A stretch of DNA of 63,990 nt, counting the filler, from Jimgerdemannia flammicorona (taxonomy: Eukaryota): assembly GCA_003990765.1 (NCBI GenBank). It is 3 parts of 3 records of this genome, joined end to end, with 100 filler letters (N's around TTAATTAATTAA, not from the genome) between each part and the next. Parts side by side here need not be neighbours in the genome. Positions count along the whole stretch, not along the records: positions 1 to 21,335 come from RBNJ01001478.1; positions 21,436 to 42,769 come from RBNJ01001479.1; positions 42,870 to 63,990 come from RBNJ01001524.1. One strand, 5' to 3'. The notes under the pieces were generated by a model that did not search any database, was not told where the DNA came from, and saw only the letters and a list, made by a program, of their open reading frames with translations. Shown piece after piece: positions 4,135 through 60,595 of the stretch (position 1 is its first letter; each line of letters opens with the position of its first letter). A program made the translations under genes and the position numbers.

Positions 4135-6228
4135 TATAAGTACATAACCTCCAAGCTATCAAAATCATATGTCACCCTCTGAACAAGCCACCAAAATCAC
4201 ATGCAACCTCTGAACAAATCTGGAAATCACCTGCTTAGTCATGAAGCTGAGTTAAACCAAAGTCACAGTACACAAAGCTGAGTCAAACCAAAGTCACAGT
4301 ATATAAGCTGAGTCAACATAAAGTTACAGAATACAAGATTCATACAAATATAATCTTACCAATCAGGACTAAATACATATATACCAAGCACCAAGATGTG
4401 ACAAAATAAAGAACCAAAACAAACAACAACCACAACTTCTGAACATATACAAACATGACCACTAAGATCTACAACCACATCCATACTAACATTTGGAATG
4501 CCATTATCAACCAAGCTACACCCCCTCTGTCCCTCATGAATATCCATAGTCTAGCACTTCTCTACTTTGTGGAAGCCCAATAGAATGCCCTGAATATGCT
4601 TAGCAAGGCCTACTGAATTAGACAAATCTCAAGCTACTACCAGATCAGCCATCTCCTGGAAGATATGGTCGAACACCACCATAACACAGACATTACCCAG
4701 ATGTCTCAACATCAGAAACTCATTGCCTGTAAATACTGAGAACTCTTCTATGAGTATAGCACCTTTATTCCCCATCTCCGAGTTATTATTACTGAAATGG
4801 TTACTACTCTGTCCTATGGTCAAATCAATGACATGATACAAAAACTCAACTACAAGTACCTCAAGTATATCCAGACTACAGACAGAACCTTTCCACACCC
4901 TAATGACCATATCCTGCAAATACCTCAAGTTGGATATACTATGAAGGATGTCTATGATATAATCTGGTTCAACAAAGATAAAGCAGAAGACAATGATCCC
5001 TCTGATACTGACATGACCTCTAGTCAAGAATCTCTGCCAACTCTGATCACTCTGCCAACCTTGTCAATAAACTTACAACAGTTTATAACCACCTACGAGA
5101 CCTATTGGGACAATAACCACTGGCACGAATACCAACCTACATTTACCCCCGATTACTTCAACTACAATGAAGAGACCAGGGAACACAACCTATACCTCCA
5201 GACAACTCTCAAGATCAAACCAACCACTCCACCACCTGAGTATGAGCAATATGAACTATAGTCGCCAGCTTACTACAACCCTGTGACTCATAGTACTGTA
5301 ATCTATAGAAGATATGCAGATAGTGAATCCAATGAAAGTGAAGATGATGCACCCCTCCTTCACCCACCAATGCCTTATCCAGCATATAAGACAGATGATG
5401 CTATCCTGTAGGACGGTAATGAAGTCTCAATATATTATTACCTTAGCAAACAAGGAGAAGTAATCCACAAACTACTCTTCCTAGATGACTACTTTATCAG
5501 AGATGATGTCATTGATAGTGATGTTATTATAGACTACCCAGATAGTATCTAAACCTATAAATAGCTTAGCAGTCATAGTATAGTTAGATTAGTCTTATAC
5601 AACATAACTGTGAACTAACTCAGCAGTCAGACAATCTCTTGATATGTCAGATCACACTTATACTATGTGACTGCATTCTGACTCAGCAAGGCACTAAGTG
5701 CTATATCCATATTCAGCATAGTCCAGATAGCCCCTCACTAGTATAAATACTCCCTCCTCCAGACCTCAGAATCTCAGATCCAGACACCTAAGAACACTTC
5801 TGAATACTTCCCCACAATATCCCTTTACATAACTACTCCTAGTATAGCAATATTATGAATAGTGAATAAACCTATTTAATAACCCACAAATCACTTTTAA
5901 GTAAATCTGCTCTCCATTAGGTCCCACCCCTAACCCTATTACAAAATTTCCTAATTGGGTATTGTCTGCAGCAATACACCAATTCAACTAAGCTGGTCTT
6001 AGTTTCTTGAACTTCCTGAAATATGGAAAATCCTGAACATCCAGAACTAGTCTGAAAAAGGACTTTGGTTAAGACATCAACCTGATCTTGAAATCAATAA
6101 GCATAGAGGATATACTCTATATAAAATTGATCTTGACCTTAAGAAAATGGTCTTCCAGAATATCCAGAACTTCCAGAAAACCCTTTCAGAACTATGTAAT
6201 GGTTACTCTAAAAAGCAACCCTCTTACA
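4135..6228 (+). repeat. 5' LTR of family A
   Basis: Colinear with 18542-20635. Starts TA (TG in the other copy), ends CTTACA; TATAAATA ~5742, AATAAA ~5865; three ~29-bp tandem units at ~4225-4330. Confidence 0.95.
4455..5552 (+). pseudogene. LTR-encoded accessory ORF (~365 codons), family A 5' LTR
   Basis: One frame MTTKIYNHIH...YYQISHLL...IACKY*ELFYEYSTFIPHLRV...acidic tail; interrupted only by stops explicable as transitions. Confidence 0.75.
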
Positions 6229-6231
6229 ACT

Positions 6232-6243
6232 TGGTAGCAGTAG
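6232..6243 (+). promoter_or_regulatory. Primer binding site (tRNA-iMet-like)
   Basis: TGGTAGCAGTAG three bases after the LTR end. Confidence 0.75.
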
Positions 6244-6249
6244 TTTACA

Positions 6250-8254: not shown

Positions 8255-8665
8255 CTAGATTTTGTCAAGTTAAGACAAACTGCTAAAGCCCCAACCAAAG
8301 AAAGTCAAAAGGCAGCTAGATATAACCTGTATACAGCTGAAGAAGCTACAGTTTCTAACTGAGAAGTCAAGCAAGTCTAACAGGAATCAACATACAAATC
8401 TCTGAAGGACATATTGGAAGAATATGCTGTTACAGCAGCCTAATATTGAAGAGACTCTCAGTAGAAGGAGGAGTCATTGACAAAGATTATACAAGCAAAA
8501 TTATTGTCCTCATCCAAAACCATAGTTGGACACCCTTCAAGATCCCCATAGGTTTCTGCATTACCCAGATCCTATTTGAAAAAATTGAGTCAACTCTGAC
8601 AGTCAAAGAAGTCCCTGAACTACTACCCACCATCCAAGGATCTAAAGGATTTGGCTCATCAAACA
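8255..8665 (+). pseudogene. dUTPase domain, family A
   Basis: AARYNL, TGINI, SSL, GGVIDKDY, ITQI, QGSKGFGSS motifs. Confidence 0.9.
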
Positions 8666-8879
8666 AGGCCCCAGCCCAACCTATGATGAGCAAAGAAGAA
8701 CAATTCTACAAGAAAATTGAAGATAGATATGTACCAAGTGGCTGATACCCCCATGGTATTAGAATGTACTCATCCCGAATAATTGATGATTACTTCTCTT
8801 ATGTCAATAAATTGACTAAAAGAAGAACCAACAGAAGGAAAGCTCCTATAACTGAAATCACCACCATTGGATCAGATAA

Positions 8880-11253
8880 ACTGCTTACACTCCAAGCTTT
8901 TGTTAACTGAGCACCTGTCAAGATTATGATAGACAGCAGTGCCTCAGGCAACTTCATCAATGAAGAAACAGTCAACAGACTCAAGGTCTTCACCTCTTCA
9001 GTACAACAAACCCAAGCAGTTGCTACAGCTAATGGAATCTCACATATTATTAGCAAGGAAGTCTGTAATTTACTCTTCTGAATTAGTGACTACTGAGTAC
9101 ATGTTACCCTCTAAATTGTACCACTTCCTGACAATGAGATCATTCTTGGAACCCCATGGTTGAAACAAGAGAACCATATGATTGATTGGGTAAACCATTC
9201 TCTGACCATCAAAAAAGGATACCACAACTTCAAACTGTAAGGTAAAAAGGACCCACTCAACTCTAGTGACCCTGGACTAAAGATCACCTATATCAACAAA
9301 CTATAACTCAAGAAATTGGCCAAGAAATGTCCTCTCTTTGCCATCTCCATCCACTTATCCAAAGGAGAACCTGAGAACTCTGAAGAAGACTTTTCCAAAG
9401 TTGACAGCCATGTCAGACCCCTACTCTAGAAATTTCGAGATACATTCCCAAAGAAACTTCCAAAAGGTCTACCTCCTAAATAAGCAGTAGACTATGCCAT
9501 CAAGACTATTCCAGATACCAAGCCAGCCTTCAAGTCAATCTACTACATATCACCAAGAGAAATTAATATACTCAAAAATGAAATCAATGAACTCCTAGAA
9601 TAAGGATTCATCAGACCCAGTGTATCACTCTATGGTGCATCCATCCTCTTTGTTGTCAAGAAAGGAGGAGACTTGCAAATGTATATTGATTACTGTGATC
9701 TTAATGAACAGACCATTAAGAACTATTGCCCACTACTCAGAATTGATGAAATATTTGATAGGCTTACCAACCCACAATTCATGAGCTCTTTTGACCTGTG
9801 AAATAGCTATTGACAAATTGCCATGAAAGAGGAAGACATCTATAAGACAGCCTTCTAAACTCGCTATAGACATTTCAAATTTCTGGTTATACCCTTTGGC
9901 TTAACTAATGTCCTAGCAACCTTCCAGACCCTGATGAACACTATCCTATACTCATATCTGGACAAATTCATTGTTATCTACATTGATGACATCCTAGTCT
10001 TTAGCAAAACTCTAGAGGAATATCTTGAATACCTTGAGCTAGTACTACTGAAACTCTGAGAAAACTGACTCTTTGCAAAACTCAGCAAGTGTGAATTTCT
10101 TCTAAAGGAAATTTAATTCCTTGGACATATTGTTATACTCAATGGAATCAAAGTGGACCCCAGCAAAATCCCTGCAATCAAGGATTGGCCCAGACTCAAG
10201 AAGCTGAAGGACCTCCAGTCATTCCTGAGATTAGCAAATTATTACAGACAATTTGTTGCCAACTTTGCCAAAATTGCTACTACCCTTACCCAAATGACCA
10301 AGCACAGTAAGAAAGAAGAACAACTCTGGACCATGAAACAAGAAAAAGACTTCAACAATCTTGCAAATTGGGGACCCAAACAAGATACAGCCTTTTAAGC
10401 ACTGAAGGATGTATTGATAACCACTCTAGTACTTCAAGCAGCAAACTCTACCCTACTATATGAAGTTACTACTGATGCCTCTGACCTAGCCCTTGGAGCA
10501 GTACTTATGCAAGAAGGACACCCTGTGGCCTACCACTCTCGGAAGTTCAATGATACTGAAATCAACTATGCAACTCATGAAAAGGAAATGTTAGCCATTG
10601 TAGACACTCTGATCAAATGGCAATCATATCTAGAAGGAGTACACTTCACTGTATTGACTGACTACAAGTTATTAGTTAATATCAAGACTCAGGCTACCCT
10701 TTCTCAAAAGCAAGCCAGATGGATGAAAGTTCTCACCAACTTTGATTATGAAATCCAGTATCACTCTGATAAGGAAAATATTATTGCTGATATAATCTCC
10801 AGACCACAAATCAAAGAAGTTATCCAAACCCTCACCTTGATTACAAACTCTATTATAGAACAAATTATCACAGCATGCGCTGATGATAAAGAAGCTCAAG
10901 TACTCCAAGAAATTTTGAAATATAATGATGCTGACAAGTATATCTGGTACAACCAATATCAACTCAAGGATAATATAATCTACCATAAGGACAGATTATA
11001 TGTTCCAAACAACTGAGACCTCTAAAGAACTATTCTATTTGAATGTTATGATGCCCCTACTACTGGATATTTAGGATTTGACAAATGCTATGAAGTTATC
11101 TCCTAAAACTTCTATTGGCCCCATATGGCAGATTAGCTCAAGATCTATATCACTTCTTGTGATGCCTGCCAATGGAACAAGTCCTCAACCTTAGTAAAAC
11201 CTAGTCTATTCCACCCTATCCCAGTACCATCTGCTAATTGGAAACAAATCTCT
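8880..11253 (+). pseudogene. pol: pol family A: aspartic protease, RT, RNase H, integrase zinc finger
   Basis: IMIDSSASGNFI; PFGLTN, YIDDILVFS; TTDASDLALGAVL, HEKEMLAIV; CDACQ. Confidence 0.92.
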
Positions 11254-14200
11254 TTTTTTTTTTTTTTTTTTTTTTTATAGTCCCTTGGACTGCCCTTGAT
11301 TACTACCATTTATAATTCTAACAATACAATATCACCCCAAACTCTCAACTAATGCCCCGCGGACCCAATCCTCCCCCCTTGACCTCCTCCTGCCTGAGCA
11401 CAACCCAATCACCCACTATCTGAATCCTCCCACCACTCTTCTGGGAGATACACTGTACCAAACCCCTGCAATTCCCCCCACCCAGCCTCCACCCTTGCCA
11501 CCAGCTATTCAAAATGTCCAATAATAACCATTCCCAACATGCCACCTTGTCCCCAACCCCAACCCACTGTCTCTCCTCAAATACATGAACCCAATGCCCA
11601 GCCAACCCAACCCACATGGCCAGAGCCCAACCAAGGGTCAGCTATTTGTCCCCAACCCCACCCACCAGTCTCTAGCAGAGCTCTCTCCATCTCCCCCCTT
11701 CCCCTCCCTCTAAGGCACACAGCCTTAACTGGTCCATGATACATCTCCAAAACTCCTCCAAAACCTCACACTCGCCAAGCCAATGTTCAGGTGTTTGTAC
11801 CACTCCTCCCTCCTGACCAATGTTGAAACATTCCTCACACTCAAATACTCCACCATCCACCAAGTGCCCAGACTAATAGTTCAACATTATATTCTACCAT
11901 AGGACTTGCCACCACACTACCCAGAACTTGGAGGGCAGCCACTGCCTCATCTGTTTGCTCCAAAGCCAGAGTCTATTCCAATCCCACTCCTCACCAATTC
12001 CAACCCTCTGCCAGGCTTTGGGCCATAGGTCTCCACTCAAGCCCTACAGACACTCCATACCCTTGCCAAGCTGAAAATCCTCCACTGGAACACCACCCAG
12101 TAGAAGCCTGTCCCACCACCATATCTACAGTCCCCAATTCTCCTCAGCTTCATCACCTCGCCACCGAAGTCTAATTTTCTTAGTACCATTCACCACCCTC
12201 CACCAAAAGCCCATAAACTGCATCCTCCTGCTCCCATCCATGGTCACTATCGTAAACAGATCACCAGAGTCACCACAAGGGAAATACTGAACCTCCCACA
12301 CCCTCTGCATGAGTGGCACCCACTCCCAGCCCCTTAGCTCACTCGCCCTCCTCAACCACCAAGCTCTCAAGCAGTGAAGCTGCTTAGTAAAGTCAACTAA
12401 ACCCAGCCCACCTCTTTCCATGGGCAGTGTGAGCACCTCCCAACCCACCTGGCTTCACTGCCCTCCCCAGATCTATGACCTTGCCATCTTCAACAGCCCC
12501 CTGACCACCCAAGTTGAGAAATCCAAATGATACTCCATATACTACAGCTTCAGCATCCAATACATATTCAGCACCATCACCCTTCTGGCTAAGAACATAT
12601 GCTGACCTCCCCATCATAGCAGAACATTTCCCTACTCCAGAAGTTGTTGATTCCACCATGTACAGGGAAGAAGAGATCTGAATACCAAGAAGTAAATCTC
12701 CAAATACCACACTGGTTCACCAGCTGACACCACTGTCCCAATTACATCACCACCAATAATTCCAGCACTCAGCACCAGAGTCTCGCATTTGTGCCAGTTT
12801 AGTTTAGCACCAGAACCCCTCTCATACCATTCCACAGACCTCTGTAACTCCCCCACATCTATCAAGGAGCCCAGCCCGACCACCATATCATCAGCAAAGG
12901 CCCCCACCTTCCAATTAATCCCTAAAATGTCCAAACCCCCAATCTGATGCTGAATCCTGTCCAATAGGGGCTCCAAGGAGAGGGCATACAATATGGATAA
13001 CAAGGGGTCCCCTTGCAGCACCCCACGCCCCAGGGGAAAGGTCACCCCCCTGTGGCCATTGATGACCAATGCTACCTGACTGTCCTCCAAGAGGCTGATC
13101 AATGATCCTCAGAACCCCAGGGGGATACTAATCCATTTCAGTACTCCCTCTAGCTAGATCCTCTACACTCTATCATAAGCCTTCTCTTGATCCAGAAATA
13201 CCAACTGGCCATCCACTTCTGTAGCCTGGGTACCTTCAATCACTCCATATACCCAAGCTGTCCCATCGCGAATCAACCAGCTACTGACAAACCCATGCTG
13301 CTCTACACCAAGCACTTGCTGAGCAATTCCTTGCAGCCTCATCACCAAGATCTTTGTCACCAGTTTGCAGTCCATGTCGAGTAGCATGATCAGCTGCCAG
13401 TTCTTCAAATCTTCCTACCTCCCCTTATTCTTATAGAGCAAGGAGACTAGCTCTAAGCGCTGGCCCCCAATTCAAGTACCAGACTGAAGAACCTCATCAC
13501 ACATAGTGGTCATTTCCTCTAGCACCTCACCCACCTTCTTCCAAAAATCCCAGGGAAGTCTATCCTCCCCAGAGCCATCCCCTTACTCATTGAGGCCACA
13601 ATCTTGCAAATTTCCTCTCTACTCACTGGGTCCCCCAAAGCCCCTAGGCCCATCGCAGGGTCCAGGTGCCAATCCCCCAGCTGCCTTTCAATGTCCAAAG
13701 CATCCACTCCTCCTTCCTCCTCACTTTATAGATTCTCCCAATGGGTTCTCAGTATACCCAGAATCACTGGAGTCCCCACCACTAGCTCGCTATTTGCATC
13801 CAGAACTCCCTTCCACCACTGCTTCATTCATCATGCTTGTAACAACCACTTCAAAAACTTAGTAGGCCTCTCCCCCTCCTCAAGCCCCTGCCACCACAGT
13901 CAGGCCACCATCCCCTGCAGCCTCACCTCCTCCTCTCTTCATAATACTCCTTTAAGCTCCTCCACCTCCTTTCAGATTCTCACAATATGCCAATCAGTTA
14001 CCTCCCCATCTTCTAGCACACCTGCCCATCTCTCCATGAGTACCACCAGATGCTGTGAGGCCCACAGCACCTGCCACCATTGCTGGGCACACCTTCCTTT
14101 CTCTGCTTCCCTCCAATATCCCTGAGCATTCACCTTCAGTCTCCTCCAGCAGTCCCCAATCCCCAGGCCCCATTCCTGCCACCTTTCGATATTCCTGACA

Positions 14201-17030
14201 ACCTCCATTTCCCAACTCTCCTATAAAGCCCTATCCTCCAATAAGGAAAAATTTAGCCACTAATGTCCAGACCCATCCTCACTTCCCCCAAACCTCCCCC
14301 CTCAAAGCAGCCCCCAGTGATCAGACTATGGACACCAAACTACCTCTAGCACCATCCAGACATCTGCTCCCCAACACTCCGCTGTCAAAACCCAGTCAAT
14401 CCTGGAGCCCAGCCCTGCTGCTCAGTGGGTATACACCCACCAATTGTCCCAAAACTGTCTTCCCAAGTCCACTAAAGAACTCAATCTCTCTGTCTCCAAC
14501 CAGTCACCCAACCCACCACTCTTGCTCCATATGTCTCTCCCTCCATCTGTTCTATCCATCTCCTTATCTCATACTATGTTGAAATCACCCCCCATGTAGT
14601 CCAACCCAACCTCTCCCAAGACACTGGCCTCTTTCAACCTGCGAATTCAATCCACTCTCTCCTGAGCAGTAACAGGACCCAACTATCAATGAGCCCCATC
14701 CAGGCCTCTTCCATACTCCCCACACCACCCAAGACCCCCAATGTCCAATGTCCCCAATATCCCCCATCCCTTTCTGAATGAGAATACCCACTTTCTCCCT
14801 CCATACCACTGCCCCCCCCCATTCCTTAGTCCAATCCTGTAAATCCACATCCACCTCATAATGAACATCCTGTAATAAGAAGAGGTCTACATCTAGTCCC
14901 TTAAGCCATCCAAATATATACTTCCTCCTAGCCACCTCCTGTAACCTATTTATGTTCAAAGAGAATATCCTAGTTGTACAGTTCATATTGAAAGAATGTT
15001 GCAATAGAGACCCCAGTCTAGTATTCCATGCTCATCTCATCTCCAGCCAGATTCAAGCACTGTTCAGCTTCCAAGTCACTCTCTGCATTAGCCTGAGCAT
15101 CCAGTGCCTCCAAGATTTCCTGATATTCCACCCCATCCACTACCTTCATCTCTAACCAGTAGTCCATACAGACTGCATGTCACTTCTCCAGTCCCTTCCT
15201 TAAGTTCCACAAGTATGATGCCCTGTCACTCACAATCCTCCTAAGTTCCTCTTCTCTCTGATCATTGACTTGATATTCAACTGACTCCAGGAGAACAGTC
15301 AGGATCTCATTCCTCATCTTCCTCGGCACCTCCTCCCTCTATAGGATCTCCTCCCAATACCTCTCTTTAATAACTCTGAAATCCTCTCCCTCCAGCTCTT
15401 CTGCTACTACCCCTTCCAGGGTCTTCCACATCCACTTCTCCTCATCTACCACCTCCACTGCACCCAGAATGATTTGCCCCCCATCCACCTTGGAGTCCAC
15501 CAGTGTGCTCCTCCTCACTGACTCGTCCCACTCCTTATCTGGCACATCCAGCAGCTCCTCCTCTCCCTCAGCTCCACCTGGGACACTATACTGAGAGCAT
15601 ACACCTTTGCTCATTTCTACATCTGTCTCCATATTGCCTTCCCTCTCCTCCTCCACTCCAATCCAAGCCCCACCCCAGGCCCTTTCACTCCCCTCAGCCC
15701 AGATGCTCTCCTGTAATCCTGTAATCCCCTCTCCTGAGCTTCCACTAGCTCTACCCCCACTCAACTTCACCAGCAGCTTCTTCTGGATTTTCCTCCCCTG
15801 CATCTTCTCCCAGGCCCCCCTCTCCATCTGGACCCTCTTCCTATCTACCTCCCCCACCACCATCCTGGCCTCAAACTCCTTCCAGGTCAATCTCCTCCTT
15901 GCAACTGCCCCTTCCAGATCCTCCAGAGCCTCTAACAGGTCTTCCTCCTCCTCCTGGGTCCCCTTCACCCTCGTGATCTTGTACTCTACTAGTCTCCACC
16001 TCAGCATCACTAGCTAGTCCCTCAACTTCCCCATATTCTCCTTCCCAGCCAGCCTTACCCTGACATCAACATCACCAGTCCGAAGCTCTGTACCCTCCCA
16101 GACCTTGAACCCAATATCCACAATCTCTCCATACTCCTTGAATGCCTCCACAACCAACTCCCTGATCCTCTCCTTCGATACCATAGAGAGATCCAATACT
16201 ATCAACTGCACCACTTGGGGGTTCCAGCATATGCACTTGGCCATAGGGACCACAACCCCACCAACTGTCACCCCCTTCTCCAAGGCTGCCAGTAAGGTGT
16301 CTTCCTCCTCAAACTCCACCTCAACCCCTTCCTTCTCCTTCAAAAACCTCACCAATACTGCTCCCTTTGCCTCCTGTATCACCAGCTCCAAAATCATCCT
16401 CACCATCACCACCAAGCCCTGGAAACACATTGTGACCATGAATTCCAACCTTGACTTCTTGAGTAATGGGGCTGACACTATGCCTGTCACCTCATCTGCC
16501 AGGTCCCTGGGCCTCATGCCTACTCTCTGTCCTGAATTGTCAACCACCATCACATCTGGATTTTTTGCCAGATCCCCAGTCACAGCCCCATCAACAGTCA
16601 CATCTCCAGCCCCTACTTCTGCTCCTCTCCTACCATCTGAAACTCCCCTGGGCACACCTCTCTGTCCCTCAGCAGCAGCTATTGATGTCTTCCCCAGGCC
16701 TAGTCAACCATCTAGACTAGAGGCCATCTTCCCCATTCTGACCTTATCAGCAAAGGTCAACCTCTCCCCTCCTCTCTGCCTCAGACTGCCCCTCCCTCTA
16801 CCACTGGGGCCTTGGCTAGCCATCGAGGCCCCCAGCATCCCCAAACCATCTCCCCTCCTCCCTACCTGCTGCCAGCCAAAGGCACCGCTATCCCCCTGAA
16901 GAGTATGCTCACCAGTTCTATCATTGCCATCCATGTTGATAGTCATCAGATACCAAAAATGTAGTACAAAGTATTATCTGAGTCTTGTGTCACCCAAATG
17001 TTACTGGTGAAAGATGGATTTCGAACTTCT
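11253..17030 (-). mobile_element. L1/Tx1-like LINE copy 2, full length (~5.8 kb), inserted in family A integrase
   Basis: Poly(T) at the left end; 17-bp TSD attggaaacaaatctct (11237-11253) / attgggaacaaatatct (17031-17047); ORF1, APE (IFSLNINRL), RT (GVLQGDPL, AFADD), C-terminal CEEC..EHWLGEC. Confidence 0.93.
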
Positions 17031-18114
17031 ATTGGGAACAAATATCTATGGACTTCATTGTACAACTACCCTGAACTAAGAATAAGAAAGATGCAATTGT
17101 TGTCTTCATGGACTATCTCAACAAACAAGCTCACTTTGTATCAACTACCACTACTGCAACAGCACCAGACATAGCTACACTCTTATTCAATAACATCTTC
17201 TGCTATCATGGTCTTCCCAAGATCATTATTAGTGATCGAGACCCAAAGTTCACCAGCCATTTTTGGAAAGCCCTCCATGGATACCTTGGAACAAAACTTG
17301 TACTATCCACAGCCTTTCACTCTGAAACTGATGGCCAAACTGAAAGAATGAACCAAACTCTGGAACAAATACTAAGGAACTATATTTCCTACAGACAAGA
17401 TGATTGGTATGAACACCTCACTGCAGTTGAGTTTGCCTATAATAATAGCAAACAAGCCTCTCTGGGAATGACCCCATTCTTTGCCAATACAGGACAAAAC
17501 CCAAACACCCCTCTGACACTCATTCGAACCACTGATGAACCCTCCACAGTTGAAGCTATTGAAGAATTTCTGCTCCAAATATGTAATCTAAGCCAGATTG
17601 CAATTGAGAATTTATCATGAGCTCAAGAACAACAGTTACAGTATGTTAACCAATACTGCCAAGAAGAAACCTTTAATATCAGAGAAAAAGTTCTATTGGA
17701 CATCTGAGAATACCAAGTTGACAACCTCAAGCACAGACCATCTACTAAACTGAACAGCAAGTTTATTGAACCATTCAAGATCATTACACAAGTCTCTCTG
17801 ACCTCCTACAAACTGGTGCTACCAGACACAATTAAGATCCATCTAGTCTTCAATGTTCAATATCTCAAGCAATATAATGAAAGTAATGATGAGCTATTCC
17901 CAAACTGGACCACCAAACCACCTGCATCTGTCATTATTAATGACCAAGAAGAATATGAAGTTGAACAAATCCTCAACAAATATAGCCACAATAATCACCC
18001 TGAGTATCTTGTCAAGTAGAAAGATTACCCAATCCACAATGTAACCTGAAAACCTAAGTCCAATCTCCAGAATGCTACTGACTTAGTTCAGGAATATGAT
18101 TCCTTGAACAACTA
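17031..18114 (+). pseudogene. Integrase core and chromodomain, family A
   Basis: ISMDFIVQLP, IISDRDPKF, TDGQTERMNQ; EYEVEQIL...YLVK*KDY...T*KPKSNL chromodomain. Confidence 0.92.
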
Positions 18115-21335: not shown

Positions 21336-21435
21336 NNNNNNNNNNNNNNNNNNNNNNNNNNNNNNNNNNNNNNNNNNNNTTAATTAATTAANNNNNNNNN
21401 NNNNNNNNNNNNNNNNNNNNNNNNNNNNNNNNNNN
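21336..21435. other. Artificial contig spacer
   Basis: N44-TTAATTAATTAA-N44, a six-frame stop linker. Confidence 0.97.
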
Positions 21436-21613
21436 ACAGCATTTGCAATCAATGTCACCTCTTGGAAGGCTATCTACATCCCTTTTTATCATCCATTCAT
21501 TGACACTTACCCATATAATCTCGAATACTACTACTGTCATCATAATCGTATTATTCTTTGATAACACCCCCCCCTCCTCCCTTTTTGAACTACAATATAA
21601 AGCTAAATACTAA

Positions 21614-42769: not shown

Positions 42770-42869
42770 NNNNNNNNNNNNNNNNNNNNNNNNNNNNNNN
42801 NNNNNNNNNNNNNTTAATTAATTAANNNNNNNNNNNNNNNNNNNNNNNNNNNNNNNNNNNNNNNNNNNN
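42770..42869. other. Artificial contig spacer
   Basis: N44-TTAATTAATTAA-N44. Confidence 0.97.
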
Positions 42870-48728: not shown

Positions 48729-49099
48729 ATATAAGGTATGAGTCTCTATTAATGTCCACAAAGGAGTCCTATCAGATATGGAGAAAGGAGATGAAGAGGA
48801 TACAGAGGTCTTCATACACTTGGTGAATAAGAATAAAAACAAGACACCTAAGCTCACAGATGAGCAGTGGTACAACAAGATCATCAATAGCTATGCCTCT
48901 CAAGAAAGATGCCCCCATGGTACTAGGATGTACTGCTCTGAACACCTGAATGACTGCTGGTCTTGTATCAGTGAAGTCAGGAAAATCTGTCAACAGAAAT
49001 ATGAGCAAAAAGTCACTGAAGCAAAAAGGAAAGCTGAAGAAGATGACCAGCCTCCAGAGCTTCAGGCTGATAGTGATAATGAGGAAGAATAAAAATCAG

Positions 49100-49520
49100 A
49101 CATCACCCTCAAGGTCAAGAAGTTTTACCCTGAAGCCAAGATCCCAGAATACAAGACCAAAGGAGCCATAGGGATGGACCTTGCTAGCATTCAAGATGTT
49201 ACTCTTGAACCACAGACCACCACCTTACTTGGCACTGGAATTGGAGTCAAGCTACCAGAAAACCATACCAGAATTATCAAGACCAGGAGCAGTCTGGCCA
49301 AAAGCAAAATCTCAGTTGAAAGAGGAGTAATTGACCCTGATTACACTGGCAAGATCTTCCTCATAGTCAGGAATCACAACTCCACCACCCCATTTGAAGT
49401 CAAGAAGCATGACAGGATTGGCCAGATGCTGATTCATGAAATCAAGAAGCCCAAGATCATAGAAGCCATCAAACTCATCAAGATCAAGAGAGGAGAACAA
49501 GACTTTGGATCTACTGGAAG
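49100..49520 (+). pseudogene. dUTPase domain, family C
   Basis: GMDL, TGIGV, RSSLA, GVIDPDYTG, RIGQM, RGEQDFGSTG. Confidence 0.92.
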
Positions 49521-51008
49521 AGGAGCCTATGCTGCCACCAAGATTACTGAACTTGAGCACAAGAAAGACAAAGATCAGAACAAGCACACATATACCATTA
49601 CCCCTGGAAGAACAACTTCTCAAGATTCTGTATCAGAATGAAGGAATACTTGCTATAGACTTCAGAGATATCTATAATCAAGAACCCAAGTACTATTATG
49701 AAGTTGATACTGGTAATACTAAGTCTATCTACTAGAAAGCCAGACCCATACTACCTGTCTACAGAGAATGGCTGTAAGCAGAACTCAAGGAAATAGAAGA
49801 AGCCAGAATCATCAAGCAAGCTATCAGCCCCTGGATCTCATCCATTGTCCTTGCCCTGAAGAAAGAAAGCAAGCCTGGAGAGTTTGTGCCAAGACTCTAC
49901 ATTGACTACAGAAAGCTTGATGCCATCATCAAGAAGGATAGGCAGCCTTGCCAAATATTCAAGAAATCCTTACTACTCTTGGAAGTGAAGCCAAATACTA
50001 CACTACCTTGGATCTGTTCTCAGACTTTCATCAGATTAGTCTCACTCAAGATGCCAGTGAGAAATCAGCCTTCATCACACCTAATACCACCTATATCTAC
50101 CTGCAAATACTATTTGGAATGTATAATGCCCCAGCAAGTTTTCAGTGAATGATAAACAGAGTCTTCAGCAAAATGGCTCTTTATCTATATTGATGATGTG
50201 ATCATCTTCAGCAACACTGTACAGAAACATGTCAATCATATACAACTAGCTCTCAAGAAGCTCAAGGAGCATGGCCTTTACATCAAGCCCAAGAAATACA
50301 AGTTTGCAGCTCAGGAAATTGCCTACCTAGGATACCTCATCAACCAGACCAGAATCTATACAGACCCCATGAAGATTGAGACTGTTGCAGCCTACCTGAG
50401 ACCCAGAACAACTACAGAAGTTCATGCCTTCCTTGGACTGGCCAGCTACTACAGAAGATTCATCAAAGGATACTATAATATTGCAGCACCTATCTACAAG
50501 CTACTGAAGAAGGAGACCAAATTTGAATAGACCAAAGAGTGCTAAGAAACCTTCAATGATCTCAAGACCAGGCTGACCCAAGTACCTATCCTCAGAAGAC
50601 CAGATTGGAACCTAGAATTCATCCTGCAGATAGATGTAAGTGTTATAGACCTTGGAGCAGTCTTAGCTCAGAAGAAAGATAGATATGAATATATCATCTC
50701 CTATGCAAGCTAAGATACCTACAGAGCAGAACAGAACTATAAGTCATATAAGCTCAAATACTTAGCAGTAGTTTGGACAATAGACAAGTTTTACTACTAC
50801 CTAGCCAGGAAATACTTCACTATTCAAACAGATCATTCTGCTCTTGCCTGGCTATTTCACACTCTAAACTCCAAAGAAATATATACCAGATGGATCTACA
50901 GAATGTAAGAGTATGACTATACTATTAAGCACCACTCAGAAAGAACTAATACCAATGCCAATGCACTCTCAAGGATACCCCAAAACACCCCTATCAAGAT
51001 TACTCAAT

Positions 51009-52187
51009 ATGAATAAGGAACTATACTATGGATTAATTAGCTATCTTTAGCAACAGAAGATGCCCAACCACTTTGAACCCTGGATAATCACTATCATCAA
51101 CTGGACTTAGAAACAGTTTGAACTGGACAACACTGCACTCAGAAAAGGAGGAAAGCTAGTAATATTTAAATACAAGAAGTATCAAGTAATGAAGAAAGTA
51201 CATGAGCAAGGATATCTAAGAGAAACCAATACATATGACAAGACAATAATGGTCCAAGATGGAAGAAGACCTGCACCAATTTATCAAAGGGTGTGATAAG
51301 TACCAAAAATAGAAATAAGATCAGCAAGACCAGACACCCAGATCATTAATAATTGAGCCTATCCCTTTCCACTACATTATAATAGATATCATTGGGCCAC
51401 TACCAGTAATATTATCAGGAAACTGCTATATTATAGTTATTGTAGACCTCTTCACCAAATGGATAGAGGCAAGAGCATTACAAGAAGCCAATGCCCTCTC
51501 TATAGCCAACTTTCTATACCAAGAAATCATCTGCTGCTACAAGACACCGAAGCAAATCGACTATGGCACAGAATTTGTCAATGGATTATACAAGATAATA
51601 TATCAGAAATATAAGATCCAGCACATCAAGACCACTACATACTACCCCCAAGAAAATGAACAGATAGAGAGAACCAATAAGACCCTCAAGAACATCCTAG
51701 TGAAGATCTCAGAGACATATAAGAGTTGGGATAATTATCTCCCAACTACCCTCTCTGTCCTATGAGATATATAGTCACAGAGTACATACTTTACCCTAAG
51801 AGAACTGCTCTTCAGAGAAGAAGATTCTGATAGAACCTCAGCCATAAATCTAGACCTAACTTGGAGACAGGTCAATGCAAAAATCCAAAGACTATACCAA
51901 ATCAGAAAGAAGGCTGAAGATTACATTATCAAGTTACAAGTATTGACAAGAAAGAATGTGGAAAAGAATCACAAGACCCTAGAACCCATCTGAATCAGAG
52001 AAAAGGTCCTACTATATCAAAATATAGTAGAAGTCTCATGGTCACAAAAACTAGAGCCCAAATGGAAAGAACTCTTCTATGTGCAAGATATTAAGAGAAC
52101 TACCTTCTGGCTTAGAAAAATCTCATGAATCATACTGCCTACTATGGTACATAGGAATAGACTCAAGAAGTACCATGAATCTATATA
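51009..52187 (+). pseudogene. Integrase, family C (separate ORF)
   Basis: MNKELYYGLISYL, IDIIGPLP, DLFTKWIEA, QIERTNKTLK, RLKKYH. Confidence 0.85.
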
Positions 52188-52552
52188 AGAGAAGCAAAAC
52201 ATAATGACCACCCACAAGGTTCTAGTCCATGAATCATAACAGCATGTTCCATGACTAGTAGGCTATCTGTCTGGACCATTCTCTAAGAGATATGACACCA
52301 GCAACTACTTATCTGTGAGACTTTCAAAGCCAGAGGAGTTCAAACCATCAACTGATTGATCAAGATCAGAATCAAGCCCTTACTCTATATGAAGGGAGTG
52401 ACCCTTCACCATCATGCCAAAATATAAAGGGAAGATGCTAGCCCATAAACACCACTTTTCAACCCCTTGCCAGAGGTTATAGGATCAGCAAATTTTTCAG
52501 GACTGGACCAATGAATAAGGATACTCAAGAAGATTCTTATTCAGGAAGAAGA

Positions 52553-54061
52553 TATAACAGTGACCCTAGAATAATGACATCAGCACAGGAGATAGTCTTT
52601 CCTTGTAAGCTACCAGATCAGAGTATAAGAAGATCATACAGCATACGAGATGAGCAATGATGACCAACTGTGAGTCATTATGACCACAGTATAAGCATCC
52701 TGAGGAATATAAAAGAAGAATTAAGGAACTACAGTAACAGCAACCAACAAGACCCACTAATTCCAAAATAGCTCAAAGACTCACTACAAATGAAATACCT
52801 GCTGCCTGCCAAACCTCAAGGTCAAGGAACCACCAAGGCATCTCAGTTGAAGAAAGGATGTTCCAAGACATCAGAAGAGCCATAAGGACCCACTCAAGAA
52901 GGACTTCTAGTATCAATCTAGGTACCTGGTGACTCTTACCATTATATCCTCTACTACTATGAAATGGAAACAAGAATTACTATTGCTACCAAATACCTCC
53001 AAATATGGCAGGAGTATGAAATAGAAAACCTCCTCTATCAGGAGTTCTCACAGGCCAGCACTCAAGAGCTACAAGATGCCACTCCTATGGATATACATGA
53101 AATGAGAACAGCTAAGAAGATCTATCAGATCTTCAGACATACACCATGGTCAATCCCCAACTTAGAGTATGTTAGAGTCTCAGATTTCAGAGACCTGTTA
53201 TTCTGCTATATCAATACACTAGAAGCTAGGGTGGCTACAGAAGCCCAGTCCACTATCACTCTCAATAGTGATGAAGTAGAAGACTTCTGGCATCCCATCC
53301 TTCAGGACAACCTAGACCAATTCCTGTAAGGGTTGATCTCAGTATTCCAAGATCTAAACATTCAGGTTAGACCTTCTCAAGACTCCATATTTGTTCCCTA
53401 TTTTATAGAAGAGAACCTCATAGACTGGAGAGCTCCAGACCTCCTTCACACCATCAAACGTAATGATATATATCATTGGCAATGATGTCATCCCATGTGA
53501 CATCGAAGCATGTGAGACACATGACCTATGCAATGATAATGATGAGATAGATAAGGCATTTGTGGACCTTATCTCCTTCGAAGACATCCTGACCTCTGAT
53601 AATGAAGCCTCCATAGTTCTGAACATTCTGCTCTAAGTATCCTAGTTATACTGAATAATGCCAGCACTGGTATTTTGATGTGATACCAAATTATATCAGT
53701 ATCCTGAACCTATATAACCATCAGTACCAACTCTGGAACTTAGCAGTTTTTTCTGTCCTGGAATTTTATTTTAATTATTGGAATTTATATTTAGCTTTAT
53801 ATCTTAGCAACCATTGAATTATATTTTGTATAAATACCCCTCTTATTTCTTCTGAAATAAAGTCAGTTCTGGTTCACTTACATATAATCCTTTACAAGCA
53901 ATCTAATAGATAACAAGACAGTTTAAAGATAAGAAGTTTGAGGACTATAAGATTTTGAGAAGGCACTCCAATAAGAACTTACTTATAACAAACTTGAGTT
54001 AGTCTAAGAGATATATCTTGAAGAGAATCTGGCATATTTGAAGGACTTGGTGACTACTATA
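52553..54061 (+). repeat. 3' LTR of family C (~1.5 kb)
   Basis: Follows the PPT; TATAAATA ~53829, AATAAA ~53856; right end approximate. Confidence 0.8.
52657..53636 (+). pseudogene. LTR-encoded accessory ORF, family C
   Basis: WQEYEIENLL...TAKKIYQIFRHTPWSIPNLEYV...acidic tail. Confidence 0.75.
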
Positions 54062-54748
54062 TGATAATAGATTTAAATATTTGCTACAGATATAAACTTA
54101 TTTCATTAATGATAGATATAAATTCTTTAAATATATATGAGTATAAACTGATATTCTATAAATATAAACTCTTTAATATAAGTATGAACTTATATTTCAT
54201 AGATATAAATAGCTTACAAACAATAAGTAAAGACAAGGTTGAATTTTCAAAAAAGACTATTTTATTTCTTTTTTTATTTATAAATATTTCTGTAAATATT
54301 TTTCTCTGCAAATACTTCTCTTTTACAAACACTTTCTTCTTCTACAAATAGTTTTTTCTACTATATATCCTTTTCTATATTCTACTTATCTCTTCCTTGA
54401 ATCAGATTATTCTTATTCAATAAAAGAAAAATATCAAGGATATTAATTATCTTATTGTCTTTATCTGAGTCAATATCTTTATATAAGTTATGAACTATTT
54501 TATATATATTTTCTCATACTTCTTTTTATTGAAAGTTTTTAGTAAGATATCAGACTAGATAAGTATATACTGAATAAGTATATATTAGTAAACATAAATT
54601 TATAAACTTAAAAATATACTTATAAATATATAAATAATAGCAACTATATAATAGTTAATATGTTTATATTTTTGAAATATATTTATAAACTAAGATTTCA
54701 GTTTAAAGAATATGAAATAGAGCAGTTGCTTTATATAGTTACTATATG

Positions 54749-56938
54749 TGTGATGTATGCAATTGACAATAGAGTACCAGTGACTGCTAAGATCAGACGA
54801 CATAATAGCATAACAATCGAATAGACAGCCTGACCCATTAGGTGATCACCCCAAAAGGAGCAATGATAATCTGAGCCAAAAGAAAGACTACATTATTTAA
54901 AGAACCATACTCCACCTCAGGAATCAGCACCAAAGAACAAGTACCACCACACAATGTCTCCTATCTGCCACCCCAATCAGACCTCCTGTCGCTCTTTCCC
55001 CCTGCCTGGCCCAAAGACTCTAATCCTTGAAGCTATCAAGAAGGCTATTTGGTGCCCAGACACCTCTGAACATCTGAACTTCTACACCAAGGACCTTGGA
55101 CACTTCATCAATTACTGGTACATAATGATCCAATAGCTCAAAGATACCACTGAATGAATGACCCTCTGGCATAATTACAAAATTGGACACCACCTTCATA
55201 ATGAAACCCAAGAAGGTGATCAGGAAGACCTTATTGCCAAAATGTTAACCACCAGCCAGCTAATCAAGAGAGCCCTCCATGTCCACCAAATCTTCCGCCA
55301 TATTCTCTGGGCTATAGCACACTTACAAGGAGTGACTGCTGGAAGTCTTGCCCATCTCTCAACTGAAGATGCAGACTGGATAGAATCAGAAGTAGCCAAC
55401 TCTATTGGTAGTAACTGGGTTGCTGTAGGAAGCCAACAAACTGAGCCCACTCAACCAGGCTTTCACACTACTCCACTCCAAGACAACCATCAAGGTCACC
55501 TAATAAGTCTCATGGAAATCTTTGAAGGACCACCCATTACCATTACAACATCTGTTGGAGCAACCCCAACTACTCACTACCCTGTCAGCTACAATTCACA
55601 CCTCATTATTTGGGAACCAAATCAAGAAGTCCCAGAAGTCTCTACCAACATAGAAACTGAAGGATCTGAGGAAGAAGAAGAGGAGGAACAAAGAATCTAC
55701 CAATTCTCTGTCTGCCTTCAAGCAGTCCAAGGGTTGGAGAATGTCATCAAAGATGATTGGCCACAATTCTACCCCCTCACCTCCTGGCCGGCGCTCTCAC
55801 CCTTTGAAGAACAGGATAAAGAAGTCACAACCCAGCAAGATGATTGGATCACTGACGAAGGGTACTTTATCATTCAGTGATCCCATGTCTGTTTTCTCAG
55901 TCCGGTCAGCCAACGTTTGTCAGCAAGTCAGCAACACCCATTTTCAGTGATACCACCCACAACATCCATATCCAGCACTAGCACTCATCTTATCCCAATT
56001 CGGCACAAACAATTGTCACACCCATTTTCAGCGATACCACCCACAATATCCATATCCAGTACTAGCACTCATCTTATCCCAATTCGGTGCAAACAATTGT
56101 CATACCCATTTTCAGCGAAACCACCACAACGTAGTATACCTTAGCCCCCCCATAGCTAGAAAATTTGTATAAATAACCCTATATCTTAGAGTGAATAAAC
56201 CTCAGTCAGTTTGTGTTTAAAAGTAAAAAGGATTACAGAGAAACCTCACTACCTCTAAGAGACCGGATAAATTCTGAGAACAAGATAACTAGAGCAATGA
56301 TCGCTCGAGGTTTGAGTTAAAGAATTTTCTCTTGCTATAGAAAATGTTCAAGATTTGCCACTAAGGAAAGCTGCACAAAAAACCATTCAGTTCAAGATTC
56401 GCCACTAAGGAAAGCCACACGAAAAGCCATTCAGTTCAGTTTGAAGACCCACCACTAAAGGAAAGCTACACAAAAAACCGCCAACTGCCGCCAAGATCCC
56501 GCCAGCCCAACCGTCATGCATTCAACCCAACCACCGTGCATTTGACCTGACTGTCATGCATTCGACCCAACTGTTGTGCATTCAGAACCAACCGCTATTC
56601 AGACTGCCATTTGAGATTCAAGGCCCGAAAAACCCAGCCAAGGAACCTAAGGATACTAGAACAAGACCACCAGTGAACGAACGACCACCAGAACCCACCC
56701 TCAAGTTAAGAATGAACGTTTGACTAAACTGTTGACCCGAACGATTCTCTACTGCACCATGAACCGTGTACGTTCAAGAAGTAATTCACCCCAAGCCTCC
56801 ACCATATGAATCGGACGAACCGATCATGTGATAATCGACCTATAACCATCGCGAATGCACTCATATCCATTGCACGCTTCACCAAGTGGCACATTGAGCT
56901 ATGCTTGAAGCCACTAGAGATATAAACCACATGCCACA
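54749..56938 (+). mobile_element. Solo LTR, family D (~2.19 kb)
   Basis: TGTG...CACA ends; TSD atatg/atgta (two transitions); TATAAATA ~56168, AATAAA ~56194; internal tandem repeats. Confidence 0.75.
54954..55880 (+). pseudogene. LTR-encoded accessory ORF, family D (~308 codons, two stops)
   Basis: WHNYKIGHHL...RALHVHQIFRHILWAIAHLQGV...acidic tail; stops at 55134 and 55155. Confidence 0.75.
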
Positions 56939-56941
56939 ATG

Positions 56942-57539: not shown

Positions 57540-58194
57540 GAATAACTTGCTAAGTCTACCCTTATTATTCTTCAGATAAATGAAATTATTCTAGACTTAC
57601 AAATATTGTACCACTTAATAGTAAGTATGAGTAAGATCTTTTAGAGTTATAAATCTTAGTTAGTCTACATCAGAGAAGATTTAATTGAACTTTTGTCAAA
57701 GACTTTATGAATGTGGAAATAGTAGACTATAATTTGATAGTATAGCTATTTTTTTTAATAAAAATGAAAATAGTTGAGTTTGTTAACTGCTAAATAAATA
57801 TATAAATAGAATATAAATAAAACACTCATTATAGTATAAATTAAACTATTACTGTTTTTGATCTTTAAGTTTACATTCTTCAAAATTTTAATGATAATAT
57901 CTGTTTTCAGATTATTATTATACTTTGGAAAAAGATCTTCAAGGAAAAGGTAATAAAGAAGTATATTTACTACAAGCTTCTAGATTATTTTATTAATCTT
58001 ATATTTCTGATAAAGATTACTAATATCTATGGATCTGCTAAATAATAATATGAAAATTCAATTTATATTTATAAATAAGCTATAATATACAAACTATAAT
58101 TTATAAACTCATTTCCAAAAACAACTTATCTATTTCTTTTTCTGTCTTACTTAATTATCTATTCTATATATCTGACCAAATGAGTCTCTATATC

Positions 58195-58680
58195 ATCATC
58201 TTGAAGTATCTTGTTATCTGAAAGTACCTTATTATCTAGAAGTACCTTATCATTTAGAAATATCTTATCATCTAAAAGTATCTTATTGTCTGAAAGCACC
58301 TCACTATATAGAAACATCTCATTATTATTCTAAATTATAAGCTTAGATTATTCATTATCTCTATCTTATTTACTATTTTTATCTTATTTATTAACTCTGT
58401 CTTCATTTTGATCTTGTATAGTCTTTTGCTATTTGGCTATCTTCTCATTAAAGTTAAAAGCTACAAACTTACTAATATTGATCTTATTTGGGTCTGATGT
58501 AGTCTACTTCTTAGTTTCATGTATCTTCATGATCTGGTATAGTCTGTCTGTAGTCTGCTCTTTGGTTTTATATACCTTTATAATCTATAATCTGTCTATA
58601 GTCTACTACTCTTTGGTTTTATACACCTTTATTGTCTGTAATCTATCTATAATCTACTGTTCCTTAGTTTCACAAAACTG
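58195..58680. repeat. Degenerate tandem repeats (~21-bp units at 58200-58320; ~54-bp units at 58500-58680) in an AT-rich relic
   Basis: Units such as atct(a)gaagtaccttatt and tagtctactctttggttttatacacctttat visible. Confidence 0.65.
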
Positions 58681-59428
58681 ATATAATTTATTCATAGCTT
58701 AATATATATTGTTTATAACTTAGTACTTATTGTTCATACTGAGATATATTTTATTTATCTTAGAATATAATCTGTTATCTTTAGGCATAAAGAGATTGTA
58801 ATAGAGAGAGATAAGAAAAGACACAATTCTTTCAGATAAAGACCTCTATTTATATCTACAATATTCATAATAGACATATGTATATATACAGATATTATCA
58901 GAAAGGCTGATAAGTAATTATAAAGCTTATTTACTTATATTTAGTTAATATGATAAAGTACAAGTATATTAAACAAGTACATATTAAGCAAGTGTACCAA
59001 ATAAATACATTAAGGACAAAAGTACAAAGCTAATTAGATAAAAAATTTTAAAAATTCTATTCTAGGCCAATATGTTTTATGATTATAAACTTACTATTAA
59101 AATTTATATTATTCTTCAAATTCTTCCCTATTTCAAATCTAATATCAATATAAAGCTTTTTTGCTCATATTGTAATCTAAAGTACAAATCTGCCTCAAGA
59201 TTGACTTAATATATCTATAAGATGAATAATATACTTATATAATCAGAATAATAAGTCTATCCTTAAATTTCCAGTTTATTAAAATTTTAGTAACTTTAAT
59301 ATTAAACTACTATTATCTATAAATTCATTCATAGTTCATAAGTTAACCTTAAATTCTATATATATTTTAAGTTTGAGCAATTCATATAAACAAACTTAGA
59401 AGATTTTAAATAATCATACTAAGTATAT

Positions 59429-60595
59429 TGTAACAGTGACTCCAGAATGATGACATCAGCACCAGAGACAGCCTTTCCTTGTAAGCCACCAGATCGGAGT
59501 ACAAGAAGATCATACAGCATACGAGATGAGCAATGATGACCAACTGTGAGTCATTGTGACTACAGTACAAGCATCCTGAAGAATATAAAAGAAAAATCAA
59601 GAAACTGCAGTAGCAGCAACCAATAAGAACCACTAATCCCAAAATAGCTCAAAAACTTACCACAAATGAAATTCCTGCTGTATGCCAAATATCAAGGTCA
59701 AGGAATCACCAAGATATCTTGGTCAAGGAAAGGATGTTCTAAAACATCAGAAGAGTCATGAGGACCTGCTCAAGAAGGACTCCTAGTGTCAACCTGAGTA
59801 CTGCAGACCCTTATTACTTCATTCTCTACCACTATGAAATGGAAACAAGGATCACTATTGCTACCGAATGCCTCCAAATGTAGCAGGAGTACAAAATAGG
59901 AAACCTCCTCTACTGGGAGTTCCCACAAGCCAGTACCTAAGAGCTACAAGATACCACTCCTATAGATATATGCAAAACAAGGACAGCTAAGAAGATCTAT
60001 CAGATCTTCAGGCATACACCATGGTCGATCCCCAACTTGGAGTATGTTAGAGTCTCAGACTTCAGAGACCTATCATCCTGCTGTATCAATGCACTAGAAG
60101 CCAGGGTGGCTACAGAAGCCCAGTCCACTATTACCCTCAACAGTGAAGAATTAGAAGACTTCTGGCACCCTATTCTTCAGGACAACCCAGACCAATTCCT
60201 GCAAGGATTGATCTCAGTATTCCAAGATCTAAGCATCCAGGTTAGACCTCCCCAAGACCCCACATTTGTTCCCTATTTTGTGGAAGAGAACCTCATAGAC
60301 TGGAGAGCTCCAGATCTTGTTCCCGATTTTCCCACCACAGCCGAACATGATGATGTCATCGGTGATGACATCATCCTGCATGACATCAACATATGTGAGA
60401 CACATAATGAAGCATGTGAAAATGATGAATTCGCAGATCTCATCTCCTTCAGTAATGATAATGACAAGGATAAAGCTTCCATAATCCTGAACATTCTGCT
60501 CTAAGTTCTGTGTTACACTGGATAATACTAGCACCGGTATTCTCATATAACATTGGATAATGCCAGCATCAGTATTCTGAGGTGATGCGAAATTG
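59429..60595 (+). repeat. Family C LTR, interrupted by LINE copy 4
   Basis: TGTAACAGTGAC start; colinear with the 52553 copy. Confidence 0.9.
59533..60504 (+). pseudogene. LTR-encoded accessory ORF, family C second copy
   Basis: One frame MMTNCESL...QEYKIGNLL...AKKIYQIFRHTPWSIPNL...IILNILL*. Confidence 0.78.

Follow-up and report, generated by a model that had tools for sequence, protein, structure and literature searches.

A candidate accessory protein family carried by Ty3/gypsy retrotransposons of Jimgerdemannia flammicorona, mostly within the long terminal repeat

Can the long terminal repeat (LTR) of a fungal retrotransposon carry a gene of its own? The question is raised by a stretch of Jimgerdemannia flammicorona DNA (63,990 nucleotides from assembly GCA_003990765.1; hereafter, the window), in which four LTR elements, A to D, had been predicted to encode one uncharacterised accessory protein, mostly inside the LTR. 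To our knowledge, fungal LTR retrotransposons are usually described as gag-pol only, and accessory genes are thought to be a hallmark of complex retroviruses. Our results support the existence of a conserved, so far undescribed protein family that appears to be carried by Ty3/gypsy elements, mostly in the unique 3' region (U3) of the LTR. We lean, if only slightly, towards reading its gene as a sense-strand accessory gene located in the 3' module of the element.

One protein family in elements B, C, and D

The open reading frames (ORFs) named in the original prediction were all found in their places in the window. Those of C and D were related to each other by tblastx (E 1e-7), and profiles built from their intact database relatives were aligned by hhalign over 199 columns with a probability of 99.3% (E 6.9e-21). 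We then scored the window ORFs against a family hidden Markov model (HMM) made from 15 metagenome proteins, none of them from the window. The second copy of the C ORF (C2) reached 295.6 bits, D 258.7 bits, and the first copy of the C ORF (C1) 235.1 bits. The stretch HQIFRH-PW is conserved in the C/D lineage. The B ORF has one frameshift and seven stops; translated through these with X in their place, it gave 32.1 bits (E 4.5e-12, Z=1) over profile positions 9–144; none of its 2000 shuffles scored as high, the top shuffle reaching 8.1 bits. B is therefore a member of the family, represented by its N-terminal domain only. On profile comparison, the ORFs of B, C, and D are shown to belong to one protein family.

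The case of element A is weaker. The N-terminal 150 amino acids (aa) of its first ORF copy (A1) scored 16.7 bits against the family HMM (E 2.2e-7, Z=1) and were collinear with it over profile positions 14–134, and none of 2000 shuffles scored as high (top shuffle, 10.3 bits). A six-frame scan of the entire window (128,000 residues) with the same HMM at E<100 returned eight rows, all of them in A1, B, C, or D, which makes A1 the sole locus found beyond the other three elements. An A-family profile was collinear with a 17-sequence family profile over 108 columns (P 0.003), with an hhalign probability of 10%.

Several observations speak against including A. The second copy of the A ORF (A2) had a weak score of 3.5 bits, which was equalled by 6 of 2000 shuffles, and the A profile compared with a shallow profile of C or D alone gave hhalign probabilities of 1.4% and 0.5%, respectively. 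The C-terminal half of the A ORF (247 aa, represented by the intact relative P0014) had no similarity to the family, with 0.2 bits and 474 of 2000 shuffles as high, and the A site was initially chosen by eye. Together with the low probability against the wide family profile, these data would fit a family restricted to the non-chromoviral elements B, C, and D, in which case the likeness of A would be due to chance or convergence and the A ORF would be a different LTR-borne ORF. We find this fairly unlikely, given the score of the A1 N-domain relative to its shuffles, the result of the six-frame scan, the exact 13-mer and the GTATAAATAC-CC box that the A LTR has in common with B, C, and D, and the similar placement of the A ORF, which comes after the LTR start and before the TATA box. 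In our judgement, A probably does carry a true N-domain homologue, and the link of the family to chromovirus A is likewise probable. The claim of one family in four elements thus holds clearly for C and D, holds for B in its N-terminal domain, and is carried over to A with weaker evidence (16.7 bits, P 0.003) and for the N-domain only.

Relatives were also found outside the window. Word-indexed protein searches gave four matches for D, seven for C, and one for A. With a C+D profile as the query, HMMER recovered 13 proteins at E≤1e-3 from 1.84 billion representatives; of these, a 1306-aa repeat protein was judged spurious and the remaining 12 credible. All 12 came from metagenomes (JGI/IMG, ENA, and one from SRC), none had an NCBI or UniRef source, and the only name among them was "hypothetical protein", which leaves the supposed link to Glomeromycotina proteomes without support. 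The intact relatives are 271, 286, 323, 324, 325, 331, and 342 aa long, and a further intact ORF of 291 codons is present in the metagenome contig L001. The D ORF is 65% identical to the 325-aa relative P0001 (E 7.7e-95), and C2 is 78% identical to the intact relative P0005. A Protein Atlas query with P0001 gave no usable match. A scan of metagenome contigs produced 225 pattern matches, two of which were confirmed (L001 and L002, of 1535 and 1345 bp). Since neither Pfam nor the named NCBI and UniRef entries searched include the family, it is probably masked from fungal gene sets.

Placement in the elements and their LTRs

The window was mapped by self-BLASTN and by comparing its stop-to-stop ORFs with Pfam. 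Of 271 such ORFs of at least 70 aa, 267 were included; the other four overlapped runs of N. The map revealed three Ty3/gypsy elements (A, B, and C) amid nested decayed retroelements. The ORFs of interest lie on the sense strand of their elements, are not part of gag-pol, are situated inside the boundaries marked by LTR pairs, polypurine tract (PPT), and primer-binding site (PBS), and are conserved between copies.

Element A is on the plus strand and is bounded by two LTRs of 2.09 kb (4135–6228 and 18542–20635). The 5' LTR has the ends TG(TA)...ACA, is 89.5% identical to 18544–20635, and is followed by a PBS of the TGG type (TGGTAGCAG); the PPT AAGAAGGAGAGAG comes before the 3' LTR. The element is flanked by the target-site duplication TGTAG/TGTGG. 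The interior encodes dUTPase, RNase H, integrase, and, at the integrase C-terminus, a chromodomain (17954–18100; PF00385, E 1.2e-7, 32 bits with a cut-off of 25.1), and it is interrupted by a minus-strand long interspersed nuclear element (LINE) at about 11253–16900. The A1 ORF (4455–5552, plus strand) lies within the LTR, 320 bp from its start, and has 365 codons with five in-frame stops; its likeness to the family is limited to the N-terminal ~120 aa. A2 (18862–19959, plus strand) has eight in-frame stops. The core signals of the A LTR follow the ORF at 5741–5873, with the TATA box GTATAAATACTCC at 5741 and the 13-mer AGTGAATAAACCT, which contains AATAAA, at 5861.

Element C, also on the plus strand, includes a LINE at 43153–48358 and encodes dUTPase, reverse transcriptase (RT), and integrase. 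Its 5' LTR is a fragment (42389–42769) ended by a run of N. Here, the start of the ORF is intact at 42630 and is followed by ~47 codons, the sole stretch of this ORF that is intact in the window. At the other end, the PPT (52543–52552) is followed at once by the 3' LTR (52553–54066, the end being set through alignment to the B LTR), and then by the equivalent of the ORF start at 52795, the stop at 53636, and the TATA box at 53828–53840. The ORF of this copy, C1 (52795–53636, plus strand), is spread over three frames with stops, and its HMM matches cover 52804–52926, 52928–53485, and 53472–53633. A further LTR of the C type (59430–60595, plus strand), truncated at 60596 by a LINE that lies on the minus strand and meets it with its poly(A) end, contains C2 (59671–60504, plus strand), with three internal stops. 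The C ORFs had been predicted to start at 52657 and 59533; this was not borne out, the true start being the equivalent of 42630, which is mutated to ATA in C1 and to ATT in C2.

The D unit (54749 to ~56378, plus strand) is present in one copy, and its 3' end is uncertain. It has the same order of features as A and C, with an ORF of 308 codons and two stops (54954–55880, plus strand), a TATA box at 56167–56179, and AGTGAATAAACCT at 56190–56202. Downstream of its core, at 56340–56640, we observed tandem repeats of ~47 bp (TTCAAGATT-GCCACTAAGGAAAGC...), with another family of short repeats after them. As no PBS was seen, D could represent a solo LTR or, alternatively, the leading part of a non-autonomous element.

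Element B is on the minus strand, from 42387 to 35933, and encodes protease, dUTPase, and RT. Its ORF (36907–36447) begins at the integrase stop, the integrase ending at about 36905, and ends ~30 nt before the PPT AGGAGGAAGA (36415–36406), which, with the start of the 3' LTR (36405–35933), is homologous to the PPT and LTR start of C. The domain is therefore internal in B and not in U3. The 3' LTR of B has a TATA box at 36150–36138 and AGTGAATAAACCT at 36127–36115, and its final 216 bp recur at 42172–42387. This second copy is a remnant of the B 5' LTR, on the minus strand, and meets the 5' LTR of C head-to-head at its first base (42387–42389). An insertion of C into the 5' LTR of B was considered and rejected: the missing part of that LTR was not found past the far end of C, where AT-rich, unrelated sequence follows position 54066.

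The placement of the ORF in U3, upstream of the TATA box, was thus confirmed for A and C, whose LTRs are bounded, and for D by similarity only. Two points limit how widely it can be extended. D looks like an LTR by its similarity to B and C, from a single copy. In L001, the stop of the ORF is followed directly by a purine run and TG; U3 placement may therefore not be general. L002 has the same order of ORF and downstream core signals as D. Both contigs are short and show no integrase or LTR-pair context, and a 33-nt repeat in L001, with its copies 1311 bp apart, is not interpretable.

The LTRs have core signals in common. The 13-mer AGTGAATAAACCT occurs four times in the window (in A, twice in B, and in D) against 0.15 expected, and the TATA motif seven times against 0.71 expected, five of the seven being within the LTRs of A to D. 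With these shared motifs, A has the LTR core signals of B, C, and D despite a distant pol: its RT is only ~33% identical in amino acids to those of B and C. The pol regions of B and C are 66% identical in nucleotides across 3.1 kb (self-BLASTN). The statement that the four families had no evident DNA similarity was therefore wrong for B and C, and for the LTR core motifs of A, B, and D. Judging from these sequences, the "four families" are closer to two lineages, one formed by the interrelated B, C, and D, and the other by A, which shares the core signals.

That the gene spans these lineages was retained in part. The chromodomain was detected in A, none was found in C (no match to any Pfam family at E≤1 in the three frames of 52170–52552, between integrase and PPT), and there is no room for one in B because the B ORF begins at the integrase stop; decay could hide a remnant in B or C. 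The homology of the A ORF, on which the claim depends, is only probable. The occurrence of the N-domain and of the LTR core signals in both a chromovirus and a non-chromoviral lineage suggests an exchange of modules by recombination, and the gene for the N-domain and the core signals may have moved together in this way.

A dUTPase is encoded upstream of the RT in all three elements, at 8359–8742 in A, at 39706–39981 in B (minus strand, between protease and RT), and at 49093–49638 in C. It is common to the chromovirus and the non-chromoviral lineage despite the low identity of their RTs.

Upstream of the ORF, a TATAAAAG box is found 65–95 nt before the ATG in the C 5' LTR fragment (at 42542–42550), C1, C2, L001, and L002. 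The leader GACTYACYACAAACAAA-ATGCCTGC, which ends in the ATG, is likewise kept in these five sequences, despite proteins that are only ~40–56% mutually identical among the C copies, L001, and L002. In D, TATTTAAAG at 54894 lies at a distance from the start that matches that of TATAAAAG. The conservation of box and leader suggests that the gene has its own promoter.

Coding constraint and possible role

Constraint on the protein was evaluated in pairs of copies. Plain Nei-Gojobori ratios of nonsynonymous to synonymous rates (dN/dS) were rejected at face value, as the A1–A2 pair of LTR copies, a neutral control, already gave 0.42–0.46, because 138 of its 140 changes are transitions. The two wrong reading frames were therefore used as a control. 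The ratio of nonsynonymous to synonymous differences per site (pN/pS) in frame was 0.37 for C2–C1 (0.99 and 1.10 out of frame), 0.46 for C2–L002 (1.00 and 1.24), 0.54 for L001–L002 (1.06 and 0.96), and 0.70 for D–L002 (1.03 and 1.12). The A1–A2 control gave 0.46 in frame and 0.53 and 0.83 out of frame, that is, no frame-specific signal, as expected from decay after insertion. These results show that the C/D lineage has evolved as coding sequence, and the predicted conservation at the protein level was found there as frame-specific constraint (0.37–0.54 in frame vs. ~1 out of frame).

The differences between A1 and A2 (4455–5552 vs. 18862–19959) comprise 78 C/T and 60 A/G transitions. The divergence between the two A LTRs is 12.8% in the ORF part, 8.8% before it, and 7.7% after it. 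Such a pattern resembles the outcome of a mutation process of the deamination type directed at repeats.

The protein has as its core an N-terminal helical domain of ~120–150 aa, located at about positions 10–145 of the family profile; in the long forms, a conserved middle part and a strongly acidic tail come after it. An AlphaFold2 model of P0018, made from a 17-sequence alignment, had a mean predicted local distance difference test (pLDDT) of 63. It predicted a helical N-domain at residues ~20–170 (pLDDT 80–97), a short beta element after it, and a disordered tail (pLDDT <50). The acidic tail that had been noted was real: in eight of the ten family proteins examined, the C-terminal 110 aa had a net charge of -17 to -27; the overall isoelectric point (pI) of the family proteins is 4.5–4.9.

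Comparison with known domains gave no match. In Pfam-A, none of 17 family members had a hit at E<0.02 (the best, at 0.026, were from unrelated families), and the window ORFs had none. The family profile had no matches among PDB sequences at E≤10. Foldseek against PDB gave a best E of 1.1 and against BFVD a best E of 0.015 with a TM-score of 0.12, and VIA-align over 48,161 chains gave a best Z of 5.2, with two chains at Z≥5, which is within chance for helical models.

Our best guess, made by analogy, is that the protein is a trans-acting regulator composed of a helical N-domain and an acidic tail. The gene may be a transcription unit of its own, read from the conserved TATAAAAG box and leader, with a transcript that would end at the AATAAA-containing signal (AGTGAATAAACC) downstream of the main TATA box of the LTR, and each LTR would yield an mRNA of ~1.2–1.5 kb. 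Because the gene comes after the PPT in A and C, it is within U3, so that both LTRs receive a copy, as does any solo LTR. The protein would work in trans: its N-domain would dock on the DNA or RNA of the element or on a host factor, and its acidic, hydrophobic-studded tail would recruit or titrate host machinery; the composition of the tail fits an activator or a decoy. Our first choice for its role would be the activation of the element's own promoter, and our second, an interference with silencing. Each LTR could then be a self-contained gene, with promoter, ORF, and poly(A) signal, present twice per insertion and, once the rest of the element has gone, still expressible from solo LTRs, whose product would be a trans-acting booster or anti-silencer and which would belong to a module exchanged between chromoviral and non-chromoviral gypsy elements. 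We propose this complete picture tentatively, as possible rather than probable.

Some of our data do not favour a regulator of this kind. The first 160 aa are near neutral, with a net charge of +1 to -7, and so give no hint of a classical nucleic-acid binder; the same property argues for docking on a protein or a specific site instead of general nucleic-acid binding. In view of the negative Pfam, PDB-sequence, and fold searches, function is argued from composition and analogy. Moreover, stops 43, 54, and 95 are common to A1 and A2. The A ORF was therefore already broken when the element inserted, and since A transposed with a broken ORF, the gene was not needed in cis.

The protein might instead counter host silencing (RNA interference, or DNA methylation or deamination) without being an activator of transcription, the copy in every LTR raising its dose. 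The transition-heavy differences between the A LTR ORFs indicate that the host attacks these elements, the gene is duplicated with each LTR and would survive in solo LTRs, and an acidic tail could mimic or titrate a partner. The family has no similarity to known silencing suppressors and no fold match, and nothing in the sequence separates such a protein from a transactivator. We regard an anti-silencing protein in place of an activator as unlikely.

It is improbable, in our estimate, that the ORF is a captured fragment of a host gene or a passenger without a role that hitch-hikes in U3. In favour of such a reading, each of the six window copies (A1, A2, B, C1, C2, and D) is a pseudogene, the ORF of element A had three stops before the element transposed, and no host homologue or function is known. 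Against it stand the frame-specific constraint between diverged copies, the at least eight intact ORFs of 271–342 aa with 30–80% identity on independent metagenome contigs, the conservation of the upstream TATA box and leader, and the absence of any annotated genome proteome as the source of the 12 credible relatives.

A structural particle protein (a second Gag-like, matrix-like, or envelope-like product) would suit a gene at the ORF3/env position of retrovirus-like elements and a predicted all-helical N-domain, and is nevertheless very improbable, given no match to a capsid, matrix, or fusion protein in the VIA-align (Z 5.2) and Foldseek (E 1.1 for PDB, 0.015 for BFVD) searches, no zinc knuckle or long hydrophobic segment seen in the family sequences, and the low overall pI.

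Surroundings and known counterparts

The window contains other features. A LINE family is present in four copies, at 581–3100 (plus strand), 11253 to ~16900 (minus), 43153–48358 (minus), and 60596–63990 (minus), with RVT_1 and a weak Exo_endo_phos match at 63331–63990. The copies have a GC content of ~50% and an extreme GC skew of 0.4–0.56, with G on the sense strand, and three of them interrupt or truncate element A, element C, and the C2 LTR. At 21336–21435 and again at 42770–42869, N occurs as a pair of 44-base runs with 12 bases between them; the second pair ends the ORF of the C 5' LTR after ~47 codons.

The N-terminal domain of Crinkler effectors (PF20147, E 5.6e-14 to 2.7e-21) is encoded by six ORFs on the minus strand (21613–33362). 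The block consists of diverged direct repeats (21770–22258 vs. 29027–29500, and 23822–24338 vs. 24864–25394) and looks like a tandemly amplified gene cluster between retrotransposons. An intact 677-aa ORF without a Pfam match lies at 26089–28119 on the minus strand, in a GC-rich island (52%). By Atlas features, its nearest clusters were "hypothetical protein" clusters, commonest in Basidiomycota (score 0.98), and, at a lower score (0.92), there were clusters of the Crinkler family, most frequent in Mucoromycota. The ORF may belong to a Crinkler-type gene, as its C-terminal part.

Proteins encoded in U3 are known from vertebrate retroviruses. The sag gene ("LTR ORF") of mouse mammary tumour virus (MMTV) and nef of the human and simian immunodeficiency viruses are accessory sense ORFs in or overlapping U3, situated after the PPT and duplicated with the LTR. 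The window ORF is comparably placed, between the PPT and the LTR TATA box, in A and C (and in D by similarity), although not in B. The family differs from sag and nef in having no Pfam, PDB, or BFVD match, though a distant relation is possible, in a host that is probably a fungus and not a vertebrate, in an element without env, and in that the gene seems, from its upstream box, to have its own TATA box where the retroviral genes are expressed by splicing. If the placement and role proposed here are true, the family would be a retrotransposon counterpart, in a fungus, of the retroviral LTR-encoded accessory genes. With a conserved orphan protein inside it, the LTR would no longer be a regulatory repeat alone, and solo LTRs would gain a coding role; there would also be a handle on the interplay of retrotransposons and fungal genome defence.

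Foamy viruses offer a second comparison. Their Tas and Bet are trans-acting accessory proteins expressed from an internal promoter located in env, and activators typically have an acidic C-terminal region. The points of likeness would be a putative second promoter within the element, towards its 3' end, and an acidic C-terminal region. No homology was found, and the putative promoter is in U3 here, in contrast to env in foamy viruses.

Among retrotransposons, additional ORFs have been described in several lineages. ORF0 of rice Retrosat2 is upstream of gag-pol, in the internal region (PMC3485330), brtn of the Botrytis element Boty is antisense (PMC8365987), and fungal chromoviruses have an "add. 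ORF" (PMC2864245). As far as the available descriptions of these and of the plant aORFs go, they resemble the family discussed here in being lineage-restricted ORFs besides gag-pol, without an assigned function and diverging faster than pol. The same descriptions place none of ORF0, brtn, and the "add. ORF" inside the LTR, the last being compared by its description only (PMC2864245). In the open-access full-text literature searched, we found no description of an ORF family inside fungal gypsy LTRs, in agreement with the original prediction that none was known. A profile of the family would improve the annotation of transposons.

The closest parallel for the distribution across lineages comes from bdelloid rotifers, in which ORF3 genes are reported to be common to unrelated lineages of LTR retrotransposons, elements that have a dUTPase as well (PMC5408684). 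As in the window, one type of accessory ORF occurs across lineages, which points to modular exchange. The rotifer ORFs, as described there, differ in being recognisable enzymes or env-like proteins encoded in the internal region, whereas the family in the window is an orphan found mostly in the LTR (PMC5408684). The domain precedes the PPT in B and follows it in C, a contrast that illustrates how an ORF3 of the internal region could become a U3 ORF, or the reverse.

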